Below are positions 317-879 of a stretch of DNA of 2,077 nucleotides, piece after piece; the first letter of the stretch is position 1, and the number at the start of each line of letters is the position of its first letter. The stretch lies in NCBI RefSeq assembly GCF_003334405.1, contig NZ_QOWM01000039.1. One strand, given 5' to 3'. The stretch comes from Escherichia coli (GTDB lineage: Bacteria; Pseudomonadota; Gammaproteobacteria; Enterobacterales; Enterobacteriaceae). The notes under the pieces were generated by a model, which was not told the origin of the DNA, ran no database searches, and saw only the letters and a program-made list of their open reading frames with translations. The translations under genes and the position numbers were made by a program.

Positions 317-485
317 TTATTTCTCACATATCGCTGGTAATTCTGTTGTTGTTCCTTCGGTGATAAGTCGCTTGATAGCCTCTAAAACACGCTCAGAAGC
401 TCTCAGACGCACGAAACCGGGTTAAATACCCCTCAGGGCATGGGAGGCATGAAAAACGCTTACAGAGGCTTTCTGTTCATCAGAA

Positions 486-646
486 TCATGATCCTGTGAA
501 GACCGAGAAAGTTCTCATGTTTAGTCACAACCTGAATATTTCATTCCGAGGGTGGTTTAATATAACTAACTGATTTTATTGAGTTCTTTGAAAGAATTTT
601 TTTAATTATGATCCTCATTTTGCTAACCGAGGATCTTCTCATGTTT
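486..646. repeat. Degenerate direct repeat, two copies (about 486-522 and 606-646) sharing ordered blocks ATGATCCT, ACCGAG, TTCTCATGTTT
   Basis: Copy A: tcatgatcctg(486-496), accgag(502-507), ttctcatgttt(512-522). Copy B: ttatgatcctc(606-616), accgag(626-631), ttctcatgttt(636-646). Same block order with a small indel between the first two blocks, in an AT-rich ORF-poor region. Confidence 0.45.
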
Positions 647-879
647 CAATAAAATACCTTTAATATCAACATTATATATTCTTTTATCAATTGGTTTATG
701 TGACCACATCATTTCAACGATACATAAATCAACAGATCCAGTAATGCCCCCTCCCCAAAGTGTCACAGAGAAGCCCTGAATCGCGCTCTGCCGCTTCGTT
801 CGGTACAACCATGAGGGAAACCATGCAAAATAAAAAAAAATCGCTTAGAACGCGTTACAGAGCGTTTTAGGGAGGTTCT

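Follow-up and report, generated by a model that had tools for sequence, protein, structure and literature searches.

Two repeats in an AT-rich spacer of an IncX-type Escherichia coli plasmid are probably orphan iterons left behind by initiator-module exchange

The stretch of DNA analysed here (2,077 nucleotides of Escherichia coli contig NZ_QOWM01000039.1, below referred to as the window) comes from a conjugative plasmid of ~31 kb of the IncX type (R6K-like), where it reaches from the pir/gamma-origin region to a J-domain gene. It is 99.7% identical to the E. coli plasmid pDETEC36 (NZ_CP116128.1, 30.9 kb, MOBP/MPF_T conjugative), and besides pDETEC36 it is matched by a handful of near-identical records. 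The annotated backbone is R6K-like (IncX), with taxA/taxC, a VirB-type T4SS, topB, a parA-like gene, bis, a DUF2726 gene ('ddp3'), a replication initiator gene, and hha and hns, which encode Hha and H-NS-like proteins. The features discussed below are collected in Table 1.

Table 1. Positions of features in and around the window (window coordinates, except for the first row).
Feature	Position	Strand	Remarks
Window within L003	25553-27629		
pir (initiator gene)	start 389 bp left of window position 1	minus	
Putative orphan iteron of the 335-aa-Rep IncX4 type, (A)CCATAAATCTGTCCC	1-15	+	first base just beyond the window edge
Second putative orphan iteron of the 335-aa-Rep type, ACCATAAATTTGTCCC	165-180	+	one mismatch to reference; conserved in L009
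ColE1-type pas-like element	259-320	+	just right of the right-hand cassette breakpoint at ~228
Junction unit A (...CTCAGAAGCTCTCAGACGC...AAAAACGCTTACAGAGGCTTT)	385-473	+	paralogue of unit B
AT-rich non-coding module holding both putative orphan iterons	474-762	.	134 plasmid records
Putative orphan iteron 1 (repeat 1), GACCGAGAAAGTTCTCATGTTT	501-522	+	orientation as resident gamma-origin iterons; 19/22 to mcr-1-type IncX4 iteron
Imperfect inverted repeat ATGATCCTC / GAGGATCTT, 12-nt spacer	607-637	.	left half of iteron 2 forms the right arm
Putative orphan iteron 2 (repeat 2), AACCGAGGATCTTCTCATGTTT	625-646	+	21/22 to pMCR-NMG38 pir-promoter-proximal iteron
Junction unit B, conserved across IncX plasmids, ending ...CGCTTAGAACGCGTTACAGAGCGTTTTAGG	763-870	+	matched by ~1,900 plasmid records
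GC-rich structured block upstream of J-domain gene	895-1308	+	repeated in L003
J-domain gene	1310-1825		

The resident gamma-origin array consists of four perfect tandem 22-bp iterons (AACGGCAAATCCTCTCATGTTT), followed by an AT-rich stretch that extends into the window. Upstream of pir, the resident origin also contains an inverted half-repeat pair, one 22-bp repeat and a DnaA-box-like site. We take this arrangement to be the classical R6K gamma-origin layout, comparable to that of an R6K-type IncX2 plasmid. The resident pi protein has 289 aa; its identity is 40% to the pi of mcr-1-type plasmids (288 aa) and ~27% to a 335-aa Rep that occurs in other plasmids likewise typed IncX4.

Within the window, the AT-rich module is surrounded by modules that recur in other plasmids. 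All examined IncX relatives have the pas-like element, as do Col(MG828) plasmids. Over ~92 nt, junction unit A is near-identical to a 1.5-kb Col(MG828) plasmid, in the segment that runs without interruption from the pas to the GC block; this explains why 422-473 matches tiny plasmids. Unit B can be aligned, weakly, with both unit A and the Col(MG828) segment, and its end runs on into the GC-rich block; TA modules are inserted directly after it in L013-L017. As 385-473 and 763-870 are paralogous, the AT block sits between two copies of a junction unit, a position comparable to that of the TA modules inserted in L013-L017. The 1.5-kb Col(MG828) plasmid has the contiguous order pas, ~90-nt unit, GC-rich block and IncX-type oriT, and compared with this contiguous pas-unit-GC block the AT block looks like an insertion.

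The GC-rich block recurs as a direct repeat at L003 28522-28935 (91% identity), is present in two to four copies per plasmid, and is also found in ~60-kb (IncI2-sized) plasmids. As ssDNA, its minus strand shows unusually strong folding (z = -3.27), which would fit a role as a single-strand promoter or in priming. On either side of the window lie 92-bp inverted repeats with the MOBP-type nick motif TATCCTG|C, at L003 23760-23851 (plus) and 30736-30827 (minus), which face each other across it. The true nick sites (TATCCTGC) are within these long inverted repeats, and the MOBP nick motif YATCCTGY occurs zero times in the window. As the oriT inverted repeats are elsewhere, the AT block was ruled out as an oriT. 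Transfer from a nick usually proceeds 5'-to-3', and because the oriT nick sites converge on the window, it would be leading-region DNA for either oriT. Known establishment elements of leading regions include the ColE1-type pas and the single-strand promoters F Frpo and ColIb ssi. The AT block resembles these in its setting, with the pas-like element on one side and, on the other, the structured and repeated GC-rich element that precedes the leading-region genes, but unlike them it has no unusual ssDNA structure (folding of 474-762, z = -0.99 and -0.84 for the two strands).

The initial annotation had described the interval 420-840 as strongly AT-rich, with two degenerate repeats of about 40 bp. 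The first part of this description holds for the centre of the interval, where GC is 0.25-0.32 across 501-750 (100-bp windows; 27% over 530-730), but not for its edges (420-500 and 750-840), where GC is 47-52%. The repeats themselves are real: a repeat search found direct repeats at 502-522 and 626-646 with 86% identity, and their iteron matches, given below, are far beyond chance. A gapped alignment lengthens them to ~40-46 bp with a 4-nt indel (483-526 versus 603-652). As the upstream ATGATCCT segment of the first copy of this longer repeat is not conserved in relatives, the meaningful repeat unit is the 22-mer. The two 22-mers are identical to each other at 18/22 positions and share the exact 11-mer TTCTCATGTTT. 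They are spaced by 124 bp and are thus neither tandem nor 22-bp phased. They share the orientation of the resident gamma-origin array, from which they are 593 and 717 bp away.

We then considered what these repeats might encode. The micro-ORFs that had been read from the sequence exist (MKNAYRGFLFIRIMIL at 449-499 and MILILLTEDLLMFQ at 608-652), so that ATG frames of 14-16 codons overlap both repeats, and a related plasmid has, elsewhere, an annotated gene for a DinQ-like type I toxin. However, the start codons are not conserved, which argues against a small hydrophobic peptide or a type I toxin. Four close relatives (L013-L016) have GCG in place of ATG449, and all aligned distant-clade relatives have AAG in place of ATG608, although the nucleotides around it are the best conserved of the block. 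Frame 608 lacks a Shine-Dalgarno sequence, and a GGAGG precedes the ATG of frame 449 at a distance of only 1 nt. The suggestion of a small-RNA remnant fared no better. An Rfam scan of the whole window (E <= 1) gave only a chance match inside the J-domain gene, counts of sigma-70 promoters and intrinsic terminators equalled the shuffle level, and folding of the AT block is ordinary on both strands (z of -0.8 and -1.0). One weak promoter-like site is present on the minus strand at 690-662, with a -35 that is not conserved in relatives. On these sequence criteria we reject the reading that the two repeats encode a peptide or a structured RNA, and we regard a coding role of the block, be it for small hydrophobic peptides, a type I toxin or a small RNA, as extremely improbable.

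The closest counterparts of the repeats are the iterons of mcr-1-type IncX4 and IncX7 plasmids. The mcr-1-type IncX4 plasmid pMCR-NMG38 contains six tandem iterons (AACCGAGGAAGCTCTCATGTTT) and one pir-promoter-proximal iteron (AACCGAGTATCTTCTCATGTTT). Each window repeat is identical to the tandem iteron at 19/22 positions, repeat 2 is closer still to the promoter-proximal (operator) iteron (Table 1), and repeat 1 matches a variant iteron of the IncX7 plasmid pJARS35 (AACCGAGGAAGTTCTCATGTTT) at 20/22. A scan of the window with the mcr-1-type IncX4 iteron, allowing <=3 mismatches, returned these 2 matches, where 0.01 were expected (200 shuffles). Both repeats have the same right half as the resident iteron (TCTCATGTTT). 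Read on the opposite strand, this half is AAACATGAGA, which the R6K iteron AAACATGAGAGCTTAGTACGTG has as its conserved half. In the 31-kb plasmid, TCTCATGTTT is found in the gamma-origin and in the two window repeats only, bar one chance copy. When the whole plasmid was scanned with the resident iteron (<=5 mismatches), the only match outside the gamma-origin was at 625-646, with 0.035 expected per 31-kb plasmid. These matches support the assignment of the repeats as iteron homologues, that is, as putative sites of the pi/Rep initiator family. Replication-protein sites had been one of several options in the initial annotation, and it is this option that agrees with the sequence homology, whereas peptides, type I toxins and small RNAs do not. 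For a partition site, another of these options, the analysis gave no hint.

Of the two parts of an iteron, R6K pi contacts the GAG with WH2 and the distal motif with WH1 (PMC4980987). At these contact positions (PMC4980987), the GAG triplet is kept in both window repeats, and the distal segments, CCTCGGT in repeat 1 and TCTCGGT in repeat 2, match the CCTCGGT of IncX4/X7 iterons at 7/7 and 6/7 positions. Repeat 2 matches the resident iteron in only 3/7 of these distal positions, and over the full length the resident iteron matches repeat 1 at 15/22 (7 mismatches) and repeat 2 at 17/22 (5 mismatches). As the GAG is kept and the distal 7 nt fit IncX4/X7 rather than the resident iteron, the repeats appear to be iterons of a foreign specificity class. 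Resident pi matches the shared AAACATGAGA half only, so that weak binding at most is expected. Like the gamma-origin iterons of the R6K family (IncX), the repeats are 22 bp long, contain the AAACATGAGA half (on the bottom strand, with the GAG for pi WH2) and are oriented as the resident array, and they are identical at 19-21/22 positions to functional mcr-1-type IncX4/IncX7 iterons. Unlike gamma-origin iterons, they are non-tandem, 124 bp apart, 0.6-0.7 kb from any array and without a cis-encoded cognate initiator, and they are mutated or deleted in some lineages. The two repeats do not form a tandem, helically phased array by a rep gene with an AT-rich/DnaA-box region, and the replicon that carries them encodes no cognate initiator, given the 40% identity of its pi to the mcr-1-type protein and its different iterons.

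Iterons outside the minimal origin are well known from R6K alpha/beta, P1 incA and F incC. The AT block might thus be an accessory origin like R6K alpha/beta, in which an isolated iteron or half-iteron in AT-rich DNA would be switched on when pi loops it to the gamma iterons in cis. The two initiator-type sites flank ~100 bp of 27%-GC DNA, they lie in cis to a gamma-type array at 0.6-0.7 kb and share its orientation, and the plasmid has no other isolated iteron, the surroundings of the oriT repeats included. We nevertheless consider this reading very unlikely. The alpha/beta iterons are cognate to the resident pi, whereas the window repeats are not (15/22 and 17/22 overall, and 3/7 in the distal part of repeat 2), and in its native hosts the block adjoins initiators with unrelated iterons. 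Alpha and beta are linked to the long inverted repeats of oriT (PMC3332091, PMC3402527), and the IncX repeats at which alpha/beta are placed (PMC3332091) are here the two 92-bp copies outside the window. The block is missing from R6K-type IncX2, and for this reason and because the oriT inverted repeats are elsewhere, its identity with the R6K alpha origin itself was ruled out. DnaA and IHF sites are not beyond chance either: a single DnaA-like 8/9 match (TTAGTCACA) that abuts repeat 1 is at chance level, the block contains no exact IHF site, and GATC is not enriched. A Tus/Ter-like match with 2 mismatches at 522-535 is likewise at chance level and not conserved.

Next, we focused on how the repeats are conserved across relatives, using an alignment of 16 loci in which identity was measured against the distant clade. 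The best-conserved 22-mer of the block is at 624-645, which corresponds to repeat 2, with an identity of 0.94 versus a block mean of 0.57, and within it CTAACCGAGGATC is invariant among the aligned relatives. The initial annotation had named unconserved repeats amid conserved flanks as the outcome that would count against it; the opposite was found. At the same time, repeat 1 was lost through a 47-bp deletion in L005, L006 and L019-L021, and in repeat 2 the CATG has become TGTG in L004, L005 and L018-L021, which destroys the GAG. As repeat 1 was deleted and the GAG of repeat 2 was mutated in several lineages, intact sites are dispensable.

The high conservation of repeat 2 may reflect some other element that overlaps it, either a site for a backbone or host protein (formed by CTAACCGAGGATC and the inverted repeat) or an H-NS nucleation site that silences leading-region genes, in which case the likeness to iterons would be historical. 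The invariant core indeed comprises the left half of the iteron and the inverted-repeat arm rather than the CATG/GAG half, H-NS-like and Hha proteins are encoded by the plasmid, and the core of the block has 27% GC. In relatives, the left arm of the inverted repeat reads AAGATCCTC, which gives a perfect 9-bp inverted repeat. However, this inverted repeat has suffered three independent pair-breaking substitutions without compensation (L018b, L019 and L022), which means that it is not selected as a hairpin. A-tract phasing, used as a proxy of curvature, was not found, with AA/TT power at 10-11 bp periodicity not above that of shuffles (p ~0.16). The half that is conserved coincides exactly with the one that gives a known class of iterons its specificity (9/9, AACCGAGGA), and a candidate protein did not emerge. 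Binding of H-NS to the core with its 27% GC is plausible, though generic, and as an explanation of repeat 2 we regard such an overlapping element as unlikely.

To see how the repeats came to lie beside the resident origin, we compared the distribution of the block with that of the initiators. The block (474-762) was found in 134 plasmid records only, of which 133 are conjugative, and those inspected are IncX-type. In every fetched carrier, tandem iterons were located beside the annotated initiator gene or elsewhere in the locus, and these are unrelated to the window repeats, being either ACCATAAATCTGTCCC... with a 334-335-aa Rep or CTGAAATCTGTATACCTAACTC with a 337-aa Rep. The fetched carriers contain the isolated pi-type iterons at the same position after the pas. 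The complete 335-aa-Rep plasmid pMNCRE44_4 encodes no pi, and apart from these two it has no pi-type iteron. The mcr-1-type IncX4 plasmid L009, L008 (untyped replicon) and the IncX1 (L010), IncX2 (L023) and IncX7 (L025) relatives lack the block, and all of them retain the pas, the block at 763-870 and the GC-rich block. An exact-pattern scan for the repeat-2 element in 100,044 representative genomes gave 0 matches.

In plasmids whose three initiators are unrelated, the neighbouring gene bis is conserved at 95-99% identity. Similarity of our plasmid to 335-aa-Rep IncX4 backbones ends at the pir/bis junction and restarts at window position 228, just left of the pas-like element, and there are database matches that cover 228-2077. 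This conservation of bis, together with the breaks in similarity at the pir/bis junction and at ~228, indicates that a cassette of initiator plus iterons has been exchanged between backbones. With a breakpoint at ~228, everything to its right, including the AT block, belongs to the 335-aa-Rep-type backbone. At the level of sequence comparison, this shows that the AT block is native to IncX4 backbones with initiators of 335-337 aa and unrelated iterons, and that another pir-plus-iteron cassette has recombined in beside it. Plasmid L018, in which the pas-plus-block is duplicated and three stranded 335-aa-Rep iterons lie between the copies, shows what looks like iteron debris in the making.

We think it probable that the two repeats are orphan iterons, relics of exchanged initiator modules that retain a putative binding competence for pi of the IncX4/X7 type. 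They would be isolated, diverged 22-bp sites of a pi-type (R6K-family) initiator, of the class AACCGAGGAAGYTCTCATGTTT of mcr-1-type IncX4/IncX7 plasmids. One terminal iteron and one operator-type iteron of an ancestral or recombined-in pi-type origin would have been stranded when initiator cassettes were swapped. A tblastn search for a pir/rep coding remnant in the window gave noise only (best E ~0.2-0.5), and homology of the block to a pi-type origin does not extend past ~25-35 nt around each iteron. As the native hosts examined have no cognate initiator in cis, any present activity must be in trans or via another protein. The GAG and the distal specificity segment are kept, which suggests that the orphans can still bind IncX4/X7 pi in trans. 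Such pi would come from a co-resident or incoming plasmid, and the orphans would then act as sites of titration or handcuffing, the classical basis of iteron incompatibility. Two findings speak against a pure relic: the conservation of repeat 2, far above that of its flanks (0.94 versus 0.57), is hard to explain in this way, and reciprocal orphans at 1-15 and 165-180 are perfectly kept despite a diverged spacer.

These reciprocal orphans are of the 335-aa-Rep type. The site at 1-15 matches the tandem iterons ACCATAAATCTGTCCC of L006, L013-L017 and L026, and for the type match at 165-180 0.00 were expected by chance. The window and pMCR-NMG38 each contain two such orphan ACCATAAATYTGTCCC sites, which equal the iteron of the 335-aa Rep, and between the two plasmids the pair is perfectly kept whereas its spacer is only ~60% alignable. 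Each IncX4 type could therefore keep two iterons of the foreign type in the region that is transferred first, as a selected, trans-acting decoy or incompatibility device that would sequester or handcuff the initiator of a competitor and displace it. The pattern is indeed reciprocal, as 335-aa-Rep plasmids carry two pi-type orphans while the window and pMCR-NMG38 carry two of the 335-aa-Rep type, and both orphan pairs are conservation peaks amid diverged spacers. As two oriT nick sites converge on it from either side, the window would be leading DNA whichever of them is used. A cognate pi and the block were seen together in one plasmid, L022, in which repeat 2 is mutated to CACG and repeat 1 is missing, although this is a single case. 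However, both sites were lost or mutated in several lineages, and passive recombination within iteron arrays can give the same pattern. Two sites on a low-copy replicon make a weak decoy and may titrate too little pi to matter. We therefore regard a selected decoy as unlikely; the relic reading is best supported, and the decoy is its most interesting alternative.

Extra-origin clusters of iterons, such as P1 incA and mini-F incC, control copy number and incompatibility by titrating or handcuffing the initiator. The window repeats resemble these as repeats of an initiator-binding type outside the minimal origin, but incA and incC are cognate, multi-copy and located beside the rep gene, whereas the two sites here are non-cognate and belong to a separate module. 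The literature searched contained no account of them. What is new is the identification of an unannotated AT-rich spacer as an apparent heterologous pair of orphan iterons, and of a reciprocal, seemingly conserved arrangement in two IncX4 replicon types.

Iterons set copy number and incompatibility, and an anonymous AT-rich spacer here becomes a record of the exchange of initiator cassettes among IncX4 backbones, in which two replicon types are both typed 'IncX4' though their initiators are only ~27-29% identical. If the sites are only relics, they would illustrate ordinary plasmid mosaicism. Common IncX4 backbones may, on the other hand, carry natural decoys for the initiator of the mcr-1 (colistin-resistance) IncX4 plasmids, which bears on plasmid coexistence and on curing strategies that are based on incompatibility. 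If true, this would imply cross-incompatibility between otherwise independent replicons and a non-coding weapon in the competition between plasmids, with the mcr-1 IncX4 lineage among its targets.

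Judged from sequence comparison, the pir gene and its gamma-origin behave as one exchangeable cassette. Among plasmids with three unrelated initiators, bis on the left flank of this cassette is 95-99% identical, and the right flank, from the ColE1-type pas element to the J-domain gene, is 93-95% identical. The 'IncX4' label given by MOB-suite covers plasmids with the 288-aa pi type and those with the 335-aa Rep type alike.

Two orphan iterons, ACCATAAATYTGTCCC, are of the type used by other IncX4 plasmids, those with a 335-aa Rep, and the plasmids that host the pair (that of the window and pMCR-NMG38) have a pi-type initiator. 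Comparison of the window with pMCR-NMG38 shows perfect conservation of both sites, whereas the AT-rich spacer of 130-165 bp that separates them is only ~60% alignable. Stranded iterons were also seen in L018 (CP057053.1), where the region comprising pas and the AT block is duplicated in tandem (2294-3800); three iterons of the 335-aa-Rep type lie between the duplicate copies, and the plasmid's own initiator, of 337 aa, has a third iteron type. Beside repeat 1, one of the orphan pi-type iterons in the AT block, 521-535 contains a DnaA-box-like sequence (TTAGTCACA, 8/9) and a minus-strand likeness to a Tus/Ter core (GTTGTGAC, 7/8). Both were rejected as chance-level matches that are not conserved in relatives.

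Features and their coordinates
Feature	Location	Basis
pir plus gamma-origin, candidate exchangeable cassette	L001 6733-8227 = window -1268 to 227	flank identity across plasmids
Orphan iterons ACCATAAATYTGTCCC (n=2)	window 1-15 and 165-180; L009 (pMCR-NMG38) 2152-2167 and 2285-2300	match to 335-aa-Rep iteron
Junction unit, ~90-105 bp	window 385-473 and 763-870; L008 (replicon not typed)/L010 (IncX1) ~2560-2800	end AAAAA(N)CGCTYAGAAYGCGWTACAGAGCGTTTTAG
GC-rich block, ~415 bp	window 895-1308; second copy L003 28522-28935	direct repeat, 91%
oriT copies (n=2), 92-bp perfect inverted repeats	L003 23760-23851 and 30736-30827	inverted repeat + TATCCTG|C
pas, junction unit, GC-rich block and IncX-type oriT, contiguous	L024 (AP026462.1, 1552 bp) 112-660	

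The junction unit recurs at module boundaries in the leading region, where it bounds the AT block and stbDE/relE-type TA cassettes. The unit could mark a junction prone to recombination, or it could form the outer portion of the ssi-like element. The GC-rich block lies upstream of the J-domain gene, and its direct-repeat copy upstream of another leading-region gene; plasmids carry 2-4 copies, including plasmids of ~60 kb (IncI2-sized). As ssDNA, the minus strand of the block (the one that the taxA-side oriT would transfer) folds unusually well (z = -3.27), and the block looks like a single-strand promoter or priming element of the Frpo/ssi type. In the closely related plasmid pDETEC36, the second copy is partly covered by a CDS annotated as 'molecular chaperone DnaJ', which is probably spurious.

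The two oriT copies converge across a 6.9-kb segment that contains bis, pir, the gamma-origin, the window and leading-region genes, and this segment is therefore the first to enter from either oriT. In tiny Col(MG828) plasmids, a ColE1-type pas, the junction unit and a GC-rich block form one contiguous run with an IncX-type oriT, which is marked by an inverted repeat and TATCCTGCATTG. Although MOB-suite labels these plasmids non-mobilizable, they could be mobilisable by IncX plasmids.
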